A stretch of DNA of 26,868 nucleotides from Promethearchaeota archaeon (GTDB lineage: Archaea; Asgardarchaeota; Hermodarchaeia; Hermodarchaeales; Hermodarchaeaceae): NCBI GenBank assembly GCA_048938295.1, contig JBHLMI010000030.1, positions 1 through 26,868 of the forward strand, read 5' to 3'. Under the pieces are notes generated by a model. The model had not been told where the DNA came from. It saw only the letters and a program-made list of their open reading frames with translations, and searched no databases. The position numbers were made by a program, and so were the translations under genes. Within the stretch, counting starts at the first letter, position 1; each line of letters begins with the position of its first letter. Below are positions 6,129-26,868 of this stretch, one piece after another.

Positions 6129-7295
6129 ATGCCCGTTAACTTGACCGCTGAAGCTCAAGCAGCGAAAATTGCTTACGAAGAAGCATCAGGCCTTGATGAA
6201 CGAATCGAAAAACTTGAGAAGTTCATTTCACTTATCCCGAAACACAAATCCTCAGAGAAGATGGTGGCCCACTACAAGCATCGATTGACCGTGTTGCGGC
6301 AAGAAAAGGAAGATTTGCGGGTACGCCGAAAAGTCGCAAGCGGAGGACCTACGTACGCGATGGCGAAGGAGGGAGCTGGACAAGTAGTCCTAGTTGGTGT
6401 CACTAATTCGGGAAAAAGTGCTCTTCTGAACCGATTAACAGGTGCTAAAGCCAAGGTTGGTGATTACGAGTTCACTACACAACTTCCTGAACCAGGCATT
6501 TTGAAGTATGGCGGCGCAGATATCCAAATAATCGATATGCCTTCGCTGTTTGAAGGCGCTATTGACAGTAGCATTGGAAGGCAAATCCTGGGAGGTATAC
6601 GTAACGCGGATCTCATCGTCTTAGTCATCGATCTTACCCGACCCCCGAAGCCACAACTCGAATTTCTTCTATTAATTTTAGAAGAATCGCGAATTAAACT
6701 CAACAAGCCCCCACCGCCGATTCGGTTCGCTAAAACGGGGAGTGGAGGAACTAATATCGTTGGTGTTACAAACTTTCAAGGGGATCCGGAACTAATCCGC
6801 CAGCTCATGCGTCGTCGACGAATTCACAATTTCTCAATTCAATTTCGCGGTCCCGCAACCTTGGAAGATTTAATAGAAGTCATTGATAGTCGAACAACAT
6901 ATGTTCCTTCAATCATTATAGCGACTAAAGGTGATTCAGCTAGTAGTTCAGAAAATTATGCGGAATTACAAAGAGAATATGGTGAGGTTTTTCCTATATT
7001 TCCGGTTTCAGTGGAGAAGGATATAGGTATTAAAAACGCAGCAGAGGCAATTTTCAAAGCGTTAAAGGTCCTCCGCATCTTTACACGAAAAAGTACAGGG
7101 GAAATCGGTGAGAAACCACTCATTTTGCCTTTGGAGTCGAATGTTGAAGATCTCGCCAAACGCCTTCACAGTGATTTTCACAAAAACTTCCGGTATGCCA
7201 TTGTTTACCGGTTAAGTACCGGGCAAATGCGTAAGAAAGTCGGATTCACCTTTGCACTAGAAGATCAGGATGTCGTCCAAATCTTCACCTTTTAG
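6129..7295 (+). CDS. OBG/DRG-family GTP-binding protein with C-terminal TGS domain
   Basis: MPVNL start, IPKHK, G1 GVTNSGKS, switch I YEFTT, G3-like DMPS, G4 ATKGD, TGS LHSDFHKNFRYA...LEDQDVVQI. Start placed at ATG 6129; the track gives 6117. Confidence 0.9.
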   Translation: MPVNLTAEAQAAKIAYEEASGLDERIEKLEKFISLIPKHKSSEKMVAHYKHRLTVLRQEKEDLRVRRKVASGGPTYAMAKEGAGQVVLVGVTNSGKSALLNRLTGAKAKVGDYEFTTQLPEPGILKYGGADIQIIDMPSLFEGAIDSSIGRQILGGIRNADLIVLVIDLTRPPKPQLEFLLLILEESRIKLNKPPPPIRFAKTGSGGTNIVGVTNFQGDPELIRQLMRRRRIHNFSIQFRGPATLEDLIEVIDSRTTYVPSIIIATKGDSASSSENYAELQREYGEVFPIFPVSVEKDIGIKNAAEAIFKALKVLRIFTRKSTGEIGEKPLILPLESNVEDLAKRLHSDFHKNFRYAIVYRLSTGQMRKKVGFTFALEDQDVVQIFTF

Positions 7296-7381: not shown

Positions 7382-7918
7382 ATGCCTATCAGACCAGGAA
7401 GATGCTATAGACAAATCAAACGACCGCCATACACACGGAAAGAATACATCAAGCGGATGCCAGGAAACAAAGTGGTGCTGTGGCGTATGGGCAAGAAACG
7501 AAGTGTTAACTTCGAATTAACGTTGAGCCTGCTAGTGGATGAAGCAGTTCAAATTCGACATAGTGCACTTGAGGCAATGCGCATTGCGACCAATCGTCAC
7601 CTCACACAAATTTTGGGACCTGAGGGGTACTTCTTATGGCTTCGCACCTATCCGCATCAAATTCTTCGAGAAAAGAAGATGATGGCCTTTGCTGGTGCAG
7701 ACAGGATCCAAGAAGGAATGCGCCGATCCTTTGGTAAGCCTTTTTCGTTAGCAGCACGAGTAAAACCAGGGCAACCTGTGATGACCTTAGAAGTCGATTA
7801 CAAAAACCTGAAAGTCGCGAAGGATGCCCTCCGTCGGGGAGCAATGAAGCTTCCAACACCTTGTTCTATTCATCTTGATGAAGCTCCGGAAGAGCTGCGT
7901 AAAAAAATCGGTTTCTAA
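7382..7918 (+). CDS. rpl10e: 50S ribosomal protein L10e (uL16)
   Basis: RPGRCYR, QIRHSALEAMRI, YPHQILREKKMMAFAGADRIQEGMRRSFGKP; GAGGTGA SD upstream. Confidence 0.97.
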   Translation: MPIRPGRCYRQIKRPPYTRKEYIKRMPGNKVVLWRMGKKRSVNFELTLSLLVDEAVQIRHSALEAMRIATNRHLTQILGPEGYFLWLRTYPHQILREKKMMAFAGADRIQEGMRRSFGKPFSLAARVKPGQPVMTLEVDYKNLKVAKDALRRGAMKLPTPCSIHLDEAPEELRKKIGF

Positions 7919-18399: not shown

Positions 18400-18436
18400 G
18401 CACCAAAGGAATCCGCACCCCCGTTAGGTGAATACG

Positions 18437-18598
18437 ATGCCTGTTGCTGATCCAGAAAAACGCCGCATTGCCCTGCAACATCTACTCTACGTCAGCATTT
18501 GTCGTGATTGTGGAGCGAAAAACCCCTTCAAGGCAACCAAGTGTCGTCGCTGCCACCGCAAAGATCTCCGACCTAAACGACGTGAACTCTCAAGGTAG
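18437..18598 (+). CDS. rpl40e: 50S ribosomal protein L40e (eL40); absent from the ORF track (53 aa)
   Basis: Manual translation MPVADPEKRRIALQHLLYVSICRDCGAKNPFKATKCRRCHRKDLRPKRRELSR*. C4 Zn finger ICRxCGAxN..A.KCRRC...LRPK; AGGTGA SD upstream. Confidence 0.95.
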   Translation: MPVADPEKRRIALQHLLYVSICRDCGAKNPFKATKCRRCHRKDLRPKRRELSR

Positions 18599-18819: not shown

Positions 18820-19014
18820 ATGCCTCGTGAAATACAAAGCGAAGAGGAGTTCCTCGAAGTTGTTGAACGGGCGAGTGAGGTTCGCGTCAAACGACTTCGA
18901 AGCTCGGTGAAACTGAAATTACGCACCCCTAGTTATTTGTACACCTATGTATGTGACCCAGGGACAGCAGAAAGATTACTCGCAAGAATGAAACTTCCTG
19001 TCGTTGATGTTTAG
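18820..19014 (+). CDS. rpl38e: 50S ribosomal protein L38e (eL38)
   Basis: MPREI...F...A..VRVKR....VKLKLRTPSYLYT is the eL38 signature. Confidence 0.92.
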   Translation: MPREIQSEEEFLEVVERASEVRVKRLRSSVKLKLRTPSYLYTYVCDPGTAERLLARMKLPVVDV

Positions 19015-19041: not shown

Positions 19042-19917
19042 TTAAGGGATAAAAGGCAACACCCAGCGAATTAAGAAGCCGATGGTTATTCCAAGCAGGC
19101 CTAAGGCAACAGGAAAAGGAAGGCCTGCCATGATGCCCCGTTTTTCTAATAGTTTTAGTGTAATTAGAAATCCAGAAATAAGGCCAACTATGGCCAGAAT
19201 AGTGGGAAGAAATCCAAAATTCACTAGAGCCAGAACCGTCATCATGCCGTAGAATGCCACATCGCCCAGTCCTATGTCCCATTCCGCACTTGAAACAGCT
19301 AACGCCCCCAGTTTGTCTGGGTCATCTTCGGTGAGTTCTACGATTTTTCGAATGGGCCCACGTTTCACTGAATAGTAATCATAGATAGCTAGGCCGATGA
19401 GAAGCAGGATACTGGTCCATACTGGAAGCACAACGCCAAGAAATGCGCCGATGAAAGCACCGAAGATGAGTAAGCCGCCATTTTTCATTCGATTATCGGC
19501 ATCGACGGTAAGAAACGCTAGTGCCATGGTCATGATTAGGGCGATGAGTATCAGGGAGGCGAGGATCGGATCAACGAATTGGAATATGATAACGAACATG
19601 AAACCAAAGTAAAGTGCCACAATGATGCTGATGAAGCCAAAAGCGCCTATCAGCAGATATCGTAAGAATTTTTCACGACCGTACTTCAAGAGCAAAACAA
19701 CCAGCGTGGCGCCAACAGTAGCTAAAACGACAAAGAGGACGGCGTTGCCCACGGCAGCAAGGATTCCGAATTCGGATTCAGGAATTGGTTCGGCGTATAA
19801 TCGGAAGCCAGATAAGAAGACAATGATTCCGAGGAGCGCAGCAGCAATTAACGAAGTGAGTAGGTTCACTAGGATGGTGCTGCGGTTCCCGGAGATTACT
19901 GGCATTTCATCGGCCAT
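19042..19917 (-). CDS. Presenilin-family GxGD intramembrane aspartyl protease
   Basis: About 9 hydrophobic segments; AIYDYYSVKRGP (Asp codon 19378-19380), IGLGDVAFYG (Asp codon 19261-19263), AGLP at the PAL position. Start placed at ATG 19917 because the track's 19977 overlaps the upstream gene. Confidence 0.9.
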   Translation of the reverse strand: MADEMPVISGNRSTILVNLLTSLIAAALLGIIVFLSGFRLYAEPIPESEFGILAAVGNAVLFVVLATVGATLVVLLLKYGREKFLRYLLIGAFGFISIIVALYFGFMFVIIFQFVDPILASLILIALIMTMALAFLTVDADNRMKNGGLLIFGAFIGAFLGVVLPVWTSILLLIGLAIYDYYSVKRGPIRKIVELTEDDPDKLGALAVSSAEWDIGLGDVAFYGMMTVLALVNFGFLPTILAIVGLISGFLITLKLLEKRGIMAGLPFPVALGLLGITIGFLIRWVLPFIP

Positions 19918-19924
19918 AATATAT

Positions 19925-21253
19925 TCACCCAAGGGTTGAGAGTTTAAAGCGTTGTCCTGTCTCAGCTGCATTTGCATTTATGCCATTCTGTTTATGCAAT
20001 GTCTTAGCCAGAAAATCGCAGGCTTCAGCTTCACCGTGAACCGTATAGAGACGTTCGAGGCTGGGAAAGGAGCTACCGAGTTCTAAGAGTTGATCTTGAC
20101 CAGCGTGGGAGGAGAAGTCGAAGAGTTGGAATTTGGCTTTGACACGCTTGAGCCCAGACCCATCATCATAGGATCCGTTTTCTAAGAGGTTCCGACCGGG
20201 TGTTCCCGGGATTTGAAACCCAACAAGCAGAACACCGTTTCGAGGGTCATGCATGATTTCTCCGAGATATCTTGCCGCGGTACCTCCTTTGAGCATACCT
20301 GCTGGTGCCACGATTAAACCCGGATCCTTAGTGATGCCCTCCCGTTGCCGGCGACTGTGAATCCATTGGGCATTGGCTAATGCACGTTTCAGGAGTTTGA
20401 AATTTCGGAAGAATTCCGGATACCGAAGAAAGACTTTTGCAGCATCACGGGCCATTCCGTCCATGAAAATGGGAAAATTGACCCGGTACTTGGTTAAAAC
20501 GCATAGGATTTCTTGAGCCCGTGCTACGGCAAAGGCTGGAACGAGGATTGTTCCTCCACTGTCGATGATTTCTTCAGCGGTATTGATAAAATTTTCTTCA
20601 ATCGTTTTTCTTTCGTCGTGTGCGGTTAGTGCGTAGGTGCTTTCTAAGATGAGAGTATCGGTGGTGTTTTTGGGAAGGCGAGCAGCTTTGAGCATTTGCG
20701 TATCGATGGTATTGATATCACCGGTATATAGGATGTCGTGGTGTGGAGTTTCCACTTGGATCGCTGCACTGCCTGGGATGTGTCCGGCATCATGAAATGT
20801 TATCGTGATGTCGCCTTTTATTTCAATTGGCTCTCGATAATTCACAATTCGAATTCGTCTAATCAATCGGTCAAGTTCTTCCTTTTCAAAGGGGAGGAAA
20901 TAGTTGCTTAACCGAATCATGTCCTTAAGAAGGAGTTTGATTAGATCGCGAGTTATTGCAGTCATATAGACGGGAGCAGAGCCACTGGCGAAGAGGAGAG
21001 GGAGGCCCCCACTATGATCTAAATGTGCGTGACTAAGTGCAACTTGGAGGTTCGCGGGTCGGCTGAGCTGTGGAAATGTTGGGTTTCCGTTGAAGGATGC
21101 TCCAAAATCACATAGAATGGAGGTGGCGTTCTCTTCAACGAGGTATGCAGAACTACCTATGGTTTTGCAGCCACCCAGAAAATGGATTTCGGTCAAACTT
21201 TTGCGAGTCCCCTTCGCCTGTACGTAGGTTTGGTTGGCGGGTAATGTATTCAC
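19925..21253 (-). CDS. Metallo-beta-lactamase / beta-CASP ribonuclease (CPSF-like, no N-terminal KH domains)
   Basis: CDFG, SHAHLDHSG, AGHIPGS, YTGD, LESTY, PAFAVARAQE, GFQIPGTPG, FSSHAG, VHGE. Confidence 0.93.
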   Translation of the reverse strand: MNTLPANQTYVQAKGTRKSLTEIHFLGGCKTIGSSAYLVEENATSILCDFGASFNGNPTFPQLSRPANLQVALSHAHLDHSGGLPLLFASGSAPVYMTAITRDLIKLLLKDMIRLSNYFLPFEKEELDRLIRRIRIVNYREPIEIKGDITITFHDAGHIPGSAAIQVETPHHDILYTGDINTIDTQMLKAARLPKNTTDTLILESTYALTAHDERKTIEENFINTAEEIIDSGGTILVPAFAVARAQEILCVLTKYRVNFPIFMDGMARDAAKVFLRYPEFFRNFKLLKRALANAQWIHSRRQREGITKDPGLIVAPAGMLKGGTAARYLGEIMHDPRNGVLLVGFQIPGTPGRNLLENGSYDDGSGLKRVKAKFQLFDFSSHAGQDQLLELGSSFPSLERLYTVHGEAEACDFLAKTLHKQNGINANAAETGQRFKLSTLG

Positions 21254-22696: not shown

Positions 22697-25600
22697 GTGG
22701 CACGACGACATTGGATTATAGTCACGTTCATCGTCGTCCTCCTCTTTCCTCTTCTAGTTGATACGCCAAATCTGCCAATACATAGAGTATCAGCTGAAAA
22801 TTCGGGTTCACCTCAATATTCACCACCACCACCTTATGGCGGAGAACCTGTTGGAGAATATAGTGGGAATGGCGCTACAACCAGTATAATGGCAACGTAT
22901 AACAAAACGCTTAGTACCCCTACATCATCTGACGTATTAACTGATTTTTCCGTTACTTTACCTATCAACTGGGATGTTGTCATTAATACCTCGTTTAGCA
23001 GCCTAACTGCCAATCCAGTTGTTTTGGATGTTGAAACTGACGACTCCACAGTTGAAGGGAGTCATAATATACGAGCGGCCATGAGTTTCCAGATAACAAA
23101 TTCCTGTTATTTGAGCAGCGTTATGGTTCGTGTTGAAGCAGGTTTGTTTGAGCTATTAGACTCTCTTGATGATCTATATGTGAGTATATTCAATGCTACC
23201 GAAGACAGCGGGCGACCAAAACCAGATCAGTTATGGTCAACTAGGGAATATTTTGATTTGGGAGACAGCACTGACACTTTTGATGGGTGGATTAACGCAA
23301 CTTGGGCAAGCCCTGTCCATCTTACAACCTCAACATCTTACAATGATTATTATTTCGTTGTACTTGTGCCTGAATCCGGGGCTACGGTGTCTTGGCAATT
23401 TCGTACGGACGTGGGAAATGGTGACAGTGGATATGCGTGGCGTTGGATGGCTGGATGGACGTTTTACCCGGTTGATTATTTCCTGAATGTTTCTCTGTTA
23501 CCCTCGGGGGGCACTCCGAAACCAAGTCAGATTTCAATGCAGGTTAATGGTACAGCGGTGACTGATGCAGTTGGTAATGCAGGATGGTGGGCCTCATCTT
23601 TCACAGCGTCAAGTTCTCCAACGCTGTTTAACGTAACCGCTACTTGGCCAATTACATTTGATTATACCTATATCGCCCTTTTCGCCCAAATTTTGGTTGG
23701 TACAACAAACTTCCAAACTGACTATCAACTTTCTCTTGCTAGCTGGAACATTACTGCGTCTGTGTCTTTTCCCAATGTGAACGCAGACGCCAATAGCCGC
23801 ACCATCAACTTCTCCATACCAGCAAATTGGAAGATTCAAACCCTCCTGAACGGGACAACCGTGAAATCAATAACCGACTATAAAGATAACAGCACTAATC
23901 CTGGCTCACCAGGATACCTCTTCATCGACGAGCCCACCGGTGCAGGAAACGGCACCCTATGGCGGACGGTTTCTTCGGATCTCAATTACGTGCAAACACC
24001 TGTTATCAAACGTGGCGGACTTGATGTTACTGGTCAACAAGTCAATATCACAGACACGTTGGCCGTTTCGGTGCAAGTTTCCACATTTACCGATGGTCAA
24101 GGACGATTCAACCCCTACGATGAGCTTGGGGTTTCGCTAAACGAATGGCTGCAGACACCAGATGGGGGAGGATTACTGAACTTTACATCCTTCACCCCAT
24201 CATCTTATGCCATAACGAATGTAAGCATGCGATGTGAAGTCGTATGGAGCAATAGCTTTCATGCCGGAGTTGGACTGAGTAGTGTAGGTTTGTTGTATCC
24301 AACAATGGTGACCGGCACTCCGTCAGCGTACACGAGCCTCATAGGCGACATGGTCAACGTTTCAGTTTACTATGAGGATACTCACAACACGGCGGGTATC
24401 CCGAATGCAGAGGTTAATGTCACCTTCAGCGGATCTACATATACTCTCACCGATCGAGGAGCCGGCTATTATTGGTCACTCTTAGATACAGGGACTATGG
24501 GACTTGGACGGGGAGTGCACTCAGGTTCAGTGAGTGCCGACCGACAGGGCTATTCGGCCAGTTTAACCTCGGTTTCATTGATCCTCTGGTCTAAGACACA
24601 ACTAGTAGCTAACTTTACATCACTGACAATTAGCTATGCGGATAGCGTCGTATTAGAAGTGAACTATTCAGTTCTAACACCCCTGGGCGAAGGTGGCATC
24701 CTTGGGGCCCAAGTCAACATTTCCGAATCTGGAATTGTCTTAAGTGCTCTGACCGATGTGGGAGGTGGTAATTATACGATTCTCCTTAGTGGTATGAGCC
24801 TTGACGTTGGTGTACACAATCTCATCGTGAACGCATCAAAGCCCGGAGAACTCTATCAAAACAACACTTTGTTTGTGATCCTAACTGTAACAGGAGAACC
24901 GACCACAATTACAGGAGCCGCCCCCTCAAGCGTCGATGGTGGAACCGCATTTAACGTGTCCATAGATTATCTGTTCCTAAATGGAACTGGAATTACGGGA
25001 GCCAGTATCTCCTGTCTACTAAATGATTCACCGTTCCTTGGCTTTACACTCTTTGATTTAGCGAATGGAACCTACAAAGCACAATTTGTGCTCGATGTGA
25101 GTGGAAGTCCAGCCACATTTAACATTAGCTTAACGGCCTCACGAGGTGGGTTCGATGCCGCCTCCTATGATGCCTTAGTTGATGTGTTGATTCGCCCCAC
25201 AACGTATAGTGTGCAAGTGCTTTCAGCTTCACCTGTCGTATACAGCGCGCCGTTTCAGATTCGAGTAACATACCAGGATATGTTGGCTGTAGGAATTATT
25301 GGGGCCGTGGTGGATGGGAACTGGTCAACAGTGATTTCTGTTGACAATCTTGATGGCACCTATACGGTTACCTGCCAAACCACCGGATGGGCTGCGGGCT
25401 GGTGGACCATCAGTTTCAACATCACTGTCATCAACTATGACACACAATACTTCAGTGAAACGTTTTACCTTGTCTGGAGCACTACCCTTACTCCCCAAGG
25501 CGGGGACTTTAGCCCAGCTGACTATGAAAACGAAAACATAACTTTAGAAGTCACCTTTTGGGATTCCAGCAACAGCGTGGGGATTACTGGAGCGACGGTT

Positions 25601-26868
25601 TGGACCGTTTTTCAATCTGTTACCCATAACTTCGTCTCTATGGGAAGTGGAGTCTACCAGCTGACATTGAATTTAACAGGTGTTACCCCCACAACTTATC
25701 CGCTAATTGTGTATGCACAGCGACCGAACTACGAAAACCAATCGATAGGCTTGAACTTGGGAGTTCTTGCAAAGCTCATACCTTCATTGACTGTGACCCT
25801 ACCACAGGGAATTGTTGAGGGAACTGAGGTTGCAGTGAGAGTGGATCTAAGTTTTGCCAATGCCACGCCTATTATAGGCGCTACAATCAACCTGACTGTC
25901 TGGGTGGATTATCAGAATGGAACCATCTTAGTTTTGTACTCACAGATAGTCACTACTGACAATCTAGGTACACGTATTGCCCCTGTTCAACTCGTGCCCT
26001 ACTCCGAGGAGGAGTGGGCCAGCGGAACCTTTGAGCCCTACCTTTGGGCATCAGCAGAGTTCGCGGGTACCCGTGCCCTGACGGGATCAACAGATGTTAC
26101 CTCCGAACCGATTTCACCACGGTTCAATCCCTGGCCATGGTGGGTTTATCTACTCGTGACTCTTCTACCTTTCATTCTAATCTTAATCTTCATAATTATA
26201 ATCAGTTGGGCATACTATGCAAAGCGGGTTAAACCACGACGGTTGGCCCAACAACAAGCCCTTGAACAAAGCGCAGGAGTCTGGGCGCAACGCATGATGG
26301 GTTTAATGAACTTGCGGGCCCTCTTCGTGACCTACTCTAAAACGGGATTACCCATTTTTACGTACGATTTTGCTGGTGGCGAAATGCCGAGTACCTTGCT
26401 ATCTGGGTTCCTCTCTGCGGTCAATGCATTTTATAGTGAAGTCTCCGGTGAATTAGACCGCGAATCCCAACTCCGTGATATCCACTACAAAGACCTGCAC
26501 TTGAGCTTACGAGAAGGGAAGTACATCGTAAGTGTCCTCATTCTCGGCTCATCACCCAGCGAGGTCCTGACCCAGTCGCTAGCAGAATTTACCTCGAAAT
26601 TTGAAGTTCACTTCAGAAAGAACTTGGCGACCTTCGAAGGACGTATCGATGTCTTCGACAAAGCTACAGAAATCGTTGAATCAAGTTTCCATGGCGAATT
26701 GTTACTGGCCTACGAATGTGTGAAGCCACCTTCGCGGGGATTCGCCCGGAAAATCTATGAATTAGGTGTTGACCTTGCCGATGATGAAGGGCGGATTTAC
26801 CTTCCTCAGCTGTTTGTTGCAGCCATCGAAAAATTTGGATCGAAGAAGAAATTCGACATCGCCAATGC
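22697..26868 (+). CDS. Large type-I membrane protein, 3'-partial: signal peptide, beta-rich ectodomain with Ig-like repeats, single TM, cytoplasmic longin-like domain and further C-terminal domain
   Basis: Manually translated: 1390 codons with no stop, from GTG 22697 (GGTGA SD at 22685-22689; in-frame TGA at 22667) to the window edge. N-terminus MARRHWIIVTFIVVLLFPLLV; TM WWVYLLVTLLPFILILIFIIIISWAYY (26138-26218) followed by KRVKPRR; tail LRALFVTYSKTGLPIFTYDF...LLSGFLSAVNAFYSEV...FTSKFEVHF. Confidence 0.93.
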   Translation, partial: MARRHWIIVTFIVVLLFPLLVDTPNLPIHRVSAENSGSPQYSPPPPYGGEPVGEYSGNGATTSIMATYNKTLSTPTSSDVLTDFSVTLPINWDVVINTSFSSLTANPVVLDVETDDSTVEGSHNIRAAMSFQITNSCYLSSVMVRVEAGLFELLDSLDDLYVSIFNATEDSGRPKPDQLWSTREYFDLGDSTDTFDGWINATWASPVHLTTSTSYNDYYFVVLVPESGATVSWQFRTDVGNGDSGYAWRWMAGWTFYPVDYFLNVSLLPSGGTPKPSQISMQVNGTAVTDAVGNAGWWASSFTASSSPTLFNVTATWPITFDYTYIALFAQILVGTTNFQTDYQLSLASWNITASVSFPNVNADANSRTINFSIPANWKIQTLLNGTTVKSITDYKDNSTNPGSPGYLFIDEPTGAGNGTLWRTVSSDLNYVQTPVIKRGGLDVTGQQVNITDTLAVSVQVSTFTDGQGRFNPYDELGVSLNEWLQTPDGGGLLNFTSFTPSSYAITNVSMRCEVVWSNSFHAGVGLSSVGLLYPTMVTGTPSAYTSLIGDMVNVSVYYEDTHNTAGIPNAEVNVTFSGSTYTLTDRGAGYYWSLLDTGTMGLGRGVHSGSVSADRQGYSASLTSVSLILWSKTQLVANFTSLTISYADSVVLEVNYSVLTPLGEGGILGAQVNISESGIVLSALTDVGGGNYTILLSGMSLDVGVHNLIVNASKPGELYQNNTLFVILTVTGEPTTITGAAPSSVDGGTAFNVSIDYLFLNGTGITGASISCLLNDSPFLGFTLFDLANGTYKAQFVLDVSGSPATFNISLTASRGGFDAASYDALVDVLIRPTTYSVQVLSASPVVYSAPFQIRVTYQDMLAVGIIGAVVDGNWSTVISVDNLDGTYTVTCQTTGWAAGWWTISFNITVINYDTQYFSETFYLVWSTTLTPQGGDFSPADYENENITLEVTFWDSSNSVGITGATVWTVFQSVTHNFVSMGSGVYQLTLNLTGVTPTTYPLIVYAQRPNYENQSIGLNLGVLAKLIPSLTVTLPQGIVEGTEVAVRVDLSFANATPIIGATINLTVWVDYQNGTILVLYSQIVTTDNLGTRIAPVQLVPYSEEEWASGTFEPYLWASAEFAGTRALTGSTDVTSEPISPRFNPWPWWVYLLVTLLPFILILIFIIIISWAYYAKRVKPRRLAQQQALEQSAGVWAQRMMGLMNLRALFVTYSKTGLPIFTYDFAGGEMPSTLLSGFLSAVNAFYSEVSGELDRESQLRDIHYKDLHLSLREGKYIVSVLILGSSPSEVLTQSLAEFTSKFEVHFRKNLATFEGRIDVFDKATEIVESSFHGELLLAYECVKPPSRGFARKIYELGVDLADDEGRIYLPQLFVAAIEKFGSKKKFDIAN
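24299..26119 (+). repeat. Six protein-level tandem repeats of about 94-115 aa (Ig-like/beta-sandwich) within the large ORF
   Basis: Unit starts near 24299, 24593, 24899, 25196, 25478 and 25775. Recurring GIPNA/GILGA/GITGA/GIIGA/GITGA/PIIGA and DRGAGYY/DVGGGNY/DLANGTY/DNLDGTY/SMGSGVY. No obvious DNA-level repeat. Confidence 0.75.

Follow-up and report, generated by a model that had tools for sequence, protein, structure and literature searches.

A predicted longin-fold domain beneath a large ectodomain of putative beta-sandwich repeats in a membrane protein of a Hermodarchaeia-type Asgard archaeon

Introduction

What kind of protein is encoded by a long reading frame that runs off the end of its contig, and what would a trafficking-type domain be doing in its tail? 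This question is raised by contig JBHLMI010000030.1 of a Promethearchaeota archaeon. The window studied here is the whole of this contig (26,868 nucleotides, called C46 below), which belongs to an archaeal metagenome-assembled genome (MAG) of 2.5 Mb in 66 contigs, 91.6% complete. At the right end of C46 a frame on the forward strand starts at position 22697 and continues to the last codon of the window. A preliminary description of this DNA, made from the letters alone, had proposed that the frame encodes a receptor-like protein in which an Ig-repeat ectodomain is linked to a cytoplasmic longin domain, and that such a protein could couple contact outside the cell to GTPase signalling or trafficking inside it.

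Longin-like domains are numerous in Asgard archaea. Lokiarchaeum contains 41 of them (PMC4917890), and 130 asCOGs of the roadblock superfamily have been described along with 'NPRL2-like longin' families (bioRxiv 10.1101/2020.10.19.343400). In a search of the literature, with the asCOG tables lying outside it, no paper was found on a longin domain tethered under a large glycosylated ectodomain. The present study shows that the frame belongs to a complete gene, whose product probably combines a known fold, and one with a known phylum-level expansion, with a receptor-like architecture for which the literature searched has no description.

Results

The frame at 22697-26866 (+) is open over 1390 codons up to the edge of the window with zero stops, and the single uninterrupted frame reported earlier is thereby confirmed. 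It starts with a GTG at 22697, the earliest start codon past the upstream stop; the stop-to-stop frame is 9 codons longer (1399 aa). It was found that the final 77 nt of the window (26792-26868) are identical to the end of contig C45 (6421-6497), on which 35 further codons and the stop of the gene can be read (about 6420-6315, minus strand). A record exists of an identical protein, over all 1425 residues, encoded on a 31.7-kb contig, and the same gene order spans the junction in two orthologous loci (on contigs of 68 kb and 23 kb). C46 and C45 are adjacent in the genome, and their join restores both the gene and the syntenic block around it. The continuation on C45, the identical 1425-aa record and the orthologous gene order establish that the gene is real, complete and non-chimeric. 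An assembly chimera had been named in the preliminary description as a finding that would undo it, and this is ruled out by the identical full-length record together with the conserved synteny. The gene occupies 22697-26868 (+) of the window, its last 35 codons and stop lying on C45, and its product is a complete 1425-aa type I membrane protein of a Hermodarchaeia-type Asgard archaeon, in all probability a surface glycoprotein.

The predicted topology is that of a type I single-pass protein, with a signal peptide, one transmembrane helix, a positive-inside flank and sequons on the outside only. Hydropathy revealed only two hydrophobic segments, residues 1-29 (with VSA following at 31-33) and about 1146-1170. 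The first forms part of the predicted signal peptide at residues 1-33 (22697-22795, +), in which hydropathy and direct reading of the sequence point to an RR(H) n-region, a hydrophobic core and VSA before the probable cleavage site. The second is the single transmembrane helix (26132-26206, +), with a 19-residue Kyte-Doolittle mean of 3.2. Immediately after the helix comes KRVKPRR, a positive-inside cluster which, with a helical juxtamembrane linker, makes up residues 1171-1205 (26207-26311, +). The 1111-aa stretch between the hydrophobic segments is rich in Ser, Thr and Gly and poor in Lys and Arg (33 K+R vs 93 D+E). All 36 N-x-S/T sequons of the protein lie in the ectodomain and 0 in the 255-aa tail; the mean in shuffled sequences was 14.6 +/- 3.2, and 0 of 2000 shuffles attained 36. 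The two hydrophobic segments, the KRVKPRR cluster and the confinement of sequons to the ectodomain argue for an N-out/C-in type I glycoprotein, in which the predicted sequons suggest that the ectodomain is glycosylated. Hydropathy agrees with the signal peptide, the ectodomain of about 1110 aa and the one transmembrane helix with positive-inside cluster that had been described before, and, together with the distribution of sequons, it puts the tail in the cytoplasm and not outside the cell, a placement that would have refuted the preliminary description.

The tail was modelled with AlphaFold2 over residues 1192-1425 on an alignment of 77 diverse family tails, and the model has a mean predicted local distance difference test (pLDDT) of 85 and a predicted template-modelling score (pTM) of 0.77. 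It contains a helix at 1193-1205, strands at 1206-1213 and 1219-1224, a helix at 1232-1249, three strands within 1260-1283, and helices at 1289-1311 and 1323-1336; in model numbering, the elements given by DSSP from the first strand onwards are E15-22, E28-33, H41-58, E69-73, E76-82, E86-92, H98-120 and H132-145. The predicted structure thus follows the longin order beta-beta-alpha-beta-beta-beta-alpha-alpha at residues 1206-1336. On the model, the fold searches and conservation, these residues (26312-26704, +) probably form a cytoplasmic longin-fold domain, and the longin pattern read by eye at 26312-26689 (residues 1206-1331) in the preliminary description coincides with this modelled unit.

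Two independent structure searches gave the same answer, so the AlphaFold and Foldseek check that had been proposed for the tail, which could have yielded a non-longin fold, returned a longin. In the Foldseek search against the PDB, the best 19 rows are all longins, among them zeta-COP, sigma-adaptins, Sec22b (target-normalised TM-score 0.73), VAMP7, Fuzzy and Mon1-Ccz1, and the roadblock domains of MglB, LAMTOR and the Rag C-terminus rank below them. VIA-align, which is independent of Foldseek and was run against 48,161 representative chains, gave its highest score, Z 12.4, to both synbindin and Sec22; Fuzzy follows with 12.2, VAMP7 with 11.9 and the solved longin domain of a Lokiarchaeota Roadblock-Longin protein (8yqg) with 11.1. 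Its best 23 matches are longins (Z 12.4-9.9) covering model residues 14-144, while the best roadblock match, MglB, has Z 9.9 and a coverage that ends at about model residue 120. Among matches to Swiss-Prot models, longin proteins make up 30 of the 30 listed. On the basis of the model, longin is the better assignment of the tail domain than roadblock.

Sequence profiles gave a different picture. Neither the whole protein nor the tail matched a longin or roadblock family in Pfam hmmscan, even at E <= 1, and the sole Pfam signal was a sub-threshold DUF4381 over the transmembrane region. No longin family occurs among the 25 Pfam families most often matched across 77 family members, and a sequence-profile search of the PDB with the tail returned non-significant matches only. 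Pfam NPR2/NPR3 gave no match in the protein; NPRL2 and NPRL3 are also absent among the 50 listed rows of each PDB search and the 30 Swiss-Prot rows, lists which one large family can fill. A prediction of the tail as a homodimer (two copies, 77-tail alignment) scored 0.01, which is evidence for neither side. A longin SNARE was also considered for this protein and is ruled out, as the transmembrane helix precedes the longin domain, no SNARE family is matched, and a compact winged-helix-like domain comes after the longin domain.

This winged-helix-like domain, omitted when the longin domain of the tail was first described, spans residues 1337 to about 1404. It starts at 26705, is cut by the window edge at 26868 (+) and continues on C45. 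In the model it is a helix-strand-helix-helix-strand unit (H158-169, E175-177, H178-189, H191-206 and E210-212 in model numbering). Some family members have weak winged helix-turn-helix matches in Pfam (NirdL-like_HTH in 7/77, best E 8.8e-5; HTH_24; HTH_AsnC-type), and structural neighbours bear the automatic names ArsR, PCI and HTH_47; PDB profile matches of the domain to the winged helices of MCM and cullin are non-significant (E 0.3-0.4). We call the domain winged-helix-like with moderate confidence. The region has a net charge of -1, and in family members generally its last helix is neutral or acidic, which weakly disfavours binding to DNA. The protein ends in an acidic tail, residues 1405-1425, of low confidence in the model. 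In the closest orthologues a conserved acidic stretch there is followed by two aromatic residues (IFF, VYF, LFY; C45 about 6315-6380, minus strand), an end that resembles a short linear motif and is lost in more distant orthologues. Pfam searches of the C-terminal extensions of ten distant family members gave only sub-threshold TPR or coiled-coil matches.

Comparison of orthologues (1281-1575 aa) has shown that no other stretch of the protein is as conserved as the longin domain. Identity is 69-92% over residues 1201-1275 and 5-77% in most ectodomain windows, and the invariant or near-invariant positions of the family all fall in the longin domain (the S-G-F-L-x-A helix, a Tyr and the F-x-x-x-F-E helix). 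The orthologues come from MAGs labelled Hermodarchaeota, and in some cases Promethearchaeota or Odinarchaeota. A HMMER search of 1.84 billion cluster representatives returned 657 proteins at E <= 1e-3, mostly long ones, the longest of 3025 aa, in which the module lies towards the C-terminal end. Among the 147 best family matches, 104 have a transmembrane helix at most 110 residues upstream, and in 90 of 103 members 28-37 residues separate the end of this helix from the first longin strand. Family ectodomains can be almost absent or as long as about 2400 aa, the median length being about 950 aa. In a profile search of 151 genomes, all of the same phylum, the cassette was found in 141, including 72 of the 72 high-quality ones, at 8 to at least 18 matches per genome. 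Neighbours with the two-domain module in AlphaFold DB and ESM Atlas (TM-score 0.7-0.76) are all uncharacterised archaeal proteins. What stays constant in this large Asgard-wide family, in which ectodomain lengths vary widely, is the combination of transmembrane helix, linker, longin domain and winged-helix-like domain. The earlier suggestion that similar architectures may exist among hypothetical Asgard proteins, and should be surveyed, was correct and understated the case.

The genome studied here has four membrane-anchored copies, on C46, C6 (at about 44.8 kb; 1389-aa frame), C9 (at about 51.5 kb; 758 aa) and C50 (at about 15.2 kb; 922 aa); in addition, the tail profile matches about eight soluble proteins. 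Another frame, of 718 aa at about 114 kb on C32, has an N-terminal longin-like domain related to the tail followed by a charged, coiled-coil-like region of about 550 aa; it matches the orthologue-tail profile weakly (E 0.03) and the family profile more clearly (E 6.5e-10).

The ectodomain appears to consist of two parts. Residues 34 to about 545 (22796-24331, +) form a beta-rich N-terminal head according to the predicted model and comparison with paralogues; its residues from about 193, as far as about 576, are shared with two paralogues of the same tail type (on C9 and C6). Residues from about 546 to about 1135 (24332-26101, +) form six tandem repeats of about 98 aa, probably beta-sandwiches, as judged from motif spacing, the model and Foldseek. 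Self-BLAST of the ectodomain found no repeats; the spacing of a motif, G-[ILV]-x-G-A-x-[IV], at residues 567, 667, 765, 866, 962 and 1058 afterwards revealed six copies, from which a period of 97-101 aa follows. Similarity to the repeat region is seen in giant proteins encoded on contigs C2 and C64 of this genome. Over residues 601-750 one orthologue has an identity of only 12-13%, and over 826-1050 another is divergent; gaps in the alignment suggest that repeat content varies among orthologues.

The AlphaFold2 model of the ectodomain, built on an alignment of 13 orthologues only, is all-beta with a mean pLDDT of 54, and its confident parts are residues from about 124 to 234 (pLDDT about 70-85) and the last two repeats. 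With this low-confidence model Foldseek gave E values of about 1e-10 to 1e-7 at TM-scores of about 0.1, the matches being strings of Ig, FN3, cadherin and macroglobulin domains, an archaeal S-layer protein and bacterial adhesin repeats (by name titin, contactin, protocadherin and S-layer arrays, with 7ptp and 6xi3 as S-layer/adhesin examples). The ectodomain had no Pfam match by hmmscan, including the Ig, FN3 and Big families. The label 'Ig-repeat' in the preliminary description therefore holds loosely, in the sense of tandem beta-sandwiches: the six repeats and the all-beta model speak for it, and the lack of any Pfam Ig family and the low confidence of the model speak against a stricter use.

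The gene is single-copy and lies within a conserved housekeeping block, seen at two orthologous loci. Before the gene the block contains TruD, succinyl-CoA ligase, L40e/L38e, a presenilin homologue, a beta-CASP nuclease, PAC2 and a tRNA-binding protein; after it come an OB-fold protein (RPA2-like by our reading), aIF2-beta, DUF424, NMD3, aIF1A, EMG1, RIO1 and a KH protein. The presenilin-family intramembrane protease homologue is encoded at 19042-19977 (-), three genes upstream (PF01080, E 4.9e-12), and its position is kept in the two orthologous loci. Two small open reading frames (ORFs) were noticed beside it. The one at 18428-18598 (+) encodes 56 aa with a C-x2-C...C-x2-C zinc ribbon and resembles ribosomal protein L40e; the one at 18820-19014 (+) encodes 64 aa and has the same position as a PF01781 (L38e) gene in the syntenic locus. 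Further away, a tRNA-Arg(TCG) gene of 94 nt lies at 7475-7568 (+), overlapped by the mechanical ORF 7382-7918, and it may hold an intron since it is longer than a standard tRNA.

Ras-like GTPases (33 matches) and roadblock proteins (PF03259, 14 matches) are encoded elsewhere in this genome. The paralogue on C50 has a Ras-like GTPase gene (C50:18121-18600) about 3 kb away. A soluble 331-aa protein whose longin part matches the tail profile is encoded at C61:59085-60078, with a Ras-like GTPase gene about 100 nt further on (C61:60146-60619), and this pair may suit tests of longin-GTPase binding better than the receptor.

Discussion

The nearest relatives of the tail by fold are the eukaryotic longins (sigma-adaptins, zeta/delta-COP, Sec22b/VAMP7/Ykt6, TRAPPC1/C4 synbindin, Fuzzy, Mon1-Ccz1), with Z up to 12.4 and a root-mean-square deviation of about 3 A over about 121 residues, and these too are cytosolic and work at membranes. 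Unlike them, the tail lacks profile membership, stands C-terminal to a type I transmembrane helix and is followed by a winged-helix-like domain. It differs from longin SNAREs also in having no SNARE motif. Closer by phylum, and alike in fold, are the Asgard asCOGs 'longin' and 'NPRL2-like longin' (bioRxiv 10.1101/2020.10.19.343400) and the Lokiarchaeota Roadblock-Longin 8yqg, which aligns over 137 residues (Z 11.1); a longin with a small C-terminal domain recalls the NPRL2-like organisation. The Asgard longins described so far differ: they are either soluble proteins or fusions with GTPase, roadblock, TRAPPC3 or two-component domains.

Several systems hold such folds at membranes by other means. 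Ragulator (LAMTOR1-5) and MglB have the sister fold (Z 9-9.9), and Ragulator is a membrane-held platform on which small GTPases dock; however, it is anchored by lipidated LAMTOR1, has no transmembrane helix of its own and no ectodomain, and the tail here fits longins better. In the signal recognition particle (SRP) receptor, the longin-type SRX domain of SR-alpha (Z 10-10.9) pairs with an Arf-like GTPase at the membrane, but there the GTPase, SR-beta, carries the transmembrane anchor, whereas here the longin is anchored and any putative GTPase would be soluble. The phytolongins of plants, at ranks 5 and 7 among the Swiss-Prot models, are likewise membrane-anchored and free of a SNARE motif, yet they are tail-anchored, with the longin domain N-terminal, the transmembrane helix C-terminal and no ectodomain. 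On the outer side, tandem Ig/FN3/cadherin receptors and archaeal S-layer glycoproteins resemble this protein in being single-pass strings of beta-sandwiches with N-glycosylation (sequons in our case). This likeness is one of analogy, drawn from a low-confidence model with no family-level match in sequence, and S-layer proteins differ in having no folded cytoplasmic domain.

The longin-type fold provides dimeric platforms for small GTPases in eukaryotes and bacteria, and pairing subunits in coat, TRAPP, GATOR and Mon1-Ccz1 complexes. Because the fold serves in these ways elsewhere, we favour, with about even confidence and by analogy, the reading that the tail is a docking platform tethered to the membrane, with a variable contact surface above it. 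The constant cassette, the fixed linker and a conservation above that of the ectodomain argue for a role of the tail beyond anchoring. The ectodomain would be a variable contact or adhesion surface on an Asgard envelope without an S-layer, the conserved tail would bring cytoplasmic partners to the membrane at the site of the ectodomain, and the rigid linker could possibly report that the ectodomain is engaged. As partners, the soluble small GTPases, of which there are many here, would be most plausible, and/or longin or roadblock paralogues that are themselves soluble and would pair with the tail as eukaryotic longins do. In cultured Lokiarchaeia an ordered S-layer is lacking, and the cell surface carries many complex proteins (PMC9834061). 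Longin and roadblock domains are established as dimeric GTPase platforms, and Asgard fusions of GTPase and longin exist (PMC10933270; bioRxiv 10.1101/2020.10.19.343400). A wider version, in which the cassette defines an Asgard-wide class of single-pass receptors that hold a longin platform at the plasma membrane itself, recruit or switch anchor-less small GTPases or adaptin-like/longin partners at a contact outside the cell, and would thus be a prokaryotic forerunner of eukaryotic receptor-to-GTPase signalling or of the coupling between cargo and adaptor, must be called rather unlikely at present.

A number of observations weigh against a docking platform. The longin assignment rests on predicted structure, as no Pfam family is matched, and the ectodomain model is poor (pLDDT 54). 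No small GTPase, roadblock or longin gene is present within 8-10 kb at the orthologous loci, nor at two distant family loci whose flanks are long enough; a further distant locus was too short for the comparison. In this genome 2 of 13 family members lie within 3 kb of Ras-like genes (P = 0.26 by permutation) and 4 of 13 within 5 kb (P = 0.06), so that the proximity is not beyond chance. Moreover, not all roles of longin domains involve GTPases, as SNAREs and coat subunits show. The non-significant proximity is in line with a published statement that the GTPase genes of Asgard archaea generally lie outside operons with longin or roadblock genes (PMC10933270). Of the coupling of receptor to GTPase or trafficking that was proposed in the preliminary description, the architecture stands; the coupling itself is drawn from the analogy of fold, with no link from gene context.

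The same silence of the neighbourhood on GTPases would suit a protein of the envelope, structural or adhesive, whose longin-wH tail only anchors, oligomerises, sorts or positions it, for instance through a link to the cytoskeleton or the insertion machinery, with no part in GTPase signalling. The gene is present once, among conserved housekeeping genes, which suggests a constitutive role, and tandem beta-sandwich repeats with dense sequons are reminiscent of S-layer/adhesin arrays such as 7ptp and 6xi3. Archaeal S-layer proteins are anchored merely by a transmembrane helix or a lipid. A tail that is the most conserved part of the protein, and the same two-domain cassette with its fixed linker under hundreds of unrelated ectodomains, exceed what a plain anchor needs, and this explanation is possible but somewhat doubtful. 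The winged-helix-like domain brings another idea into play, namely that a presenilin-type protease frees the longin-wH tail by intramembrane proteolysis and that the winged helix then binds DNA or another nuclear-type target. Eukaryotic presenilins cleave type I transmembrane proteins of N-out/C-in topology, the topology predicted here, and a presenilin-family gene lies three genes upstream also in the orthologous loci. But the entire 20-kb block is syntenic, so this neighbour carries no specific signal; the winged-helix region, with its net charge of -1 and neutral to acidic last helix, is unlike winged helices that read DNA, and its matches to PDB sequences are non-significant. We regard release of the tail as very improbable.

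The remaining alternative is a question of classification and is compatible with the other readings. Longin and roadblock are sister folds (PMC10933270), and the tail could be of roadblock/MglB type or a roadblock-longin intermediate, acting as an MglB-like platform with GTPase-activating protein (GAP) function. The extra helix at 1193-1205 precedes the first strand as it does in roadblock domains, for which reason the domain may sit between the two folds, and MglB, LAMTOR and Asgard roadblock structures match from this N-terminal helix with Z 9-9.9. Still, the best 23 VIA-align and best 19 Foldseek matches are longins that reach both C-terminal helices (model residue 144), where roadblock matches end at about residue 120, and PF03259 misses the tail while it finds 14 other loci in the genome. 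A roadblock identity is hence unlikely.

How dozens of Asgard GTPases and longin/roadblock proteins act at membranes without lipid anchors or organelles is an open issue in the study of eukaryote origins. If a membrane-tethered docking platform is the right reading, a longin domain held at a fixed distance under the membrane, in 8 to at least 18 copies per genome, would give a concrete and testable answer. The gene is well suited for such tests as it is complete, single-copy and syntenic across Hermodarchaeia, with a strongly conserved tail and a high-confidence model of it. Some of the 'complex surface proteins' of cultured Lokiarchaeia would in that case gain identities.

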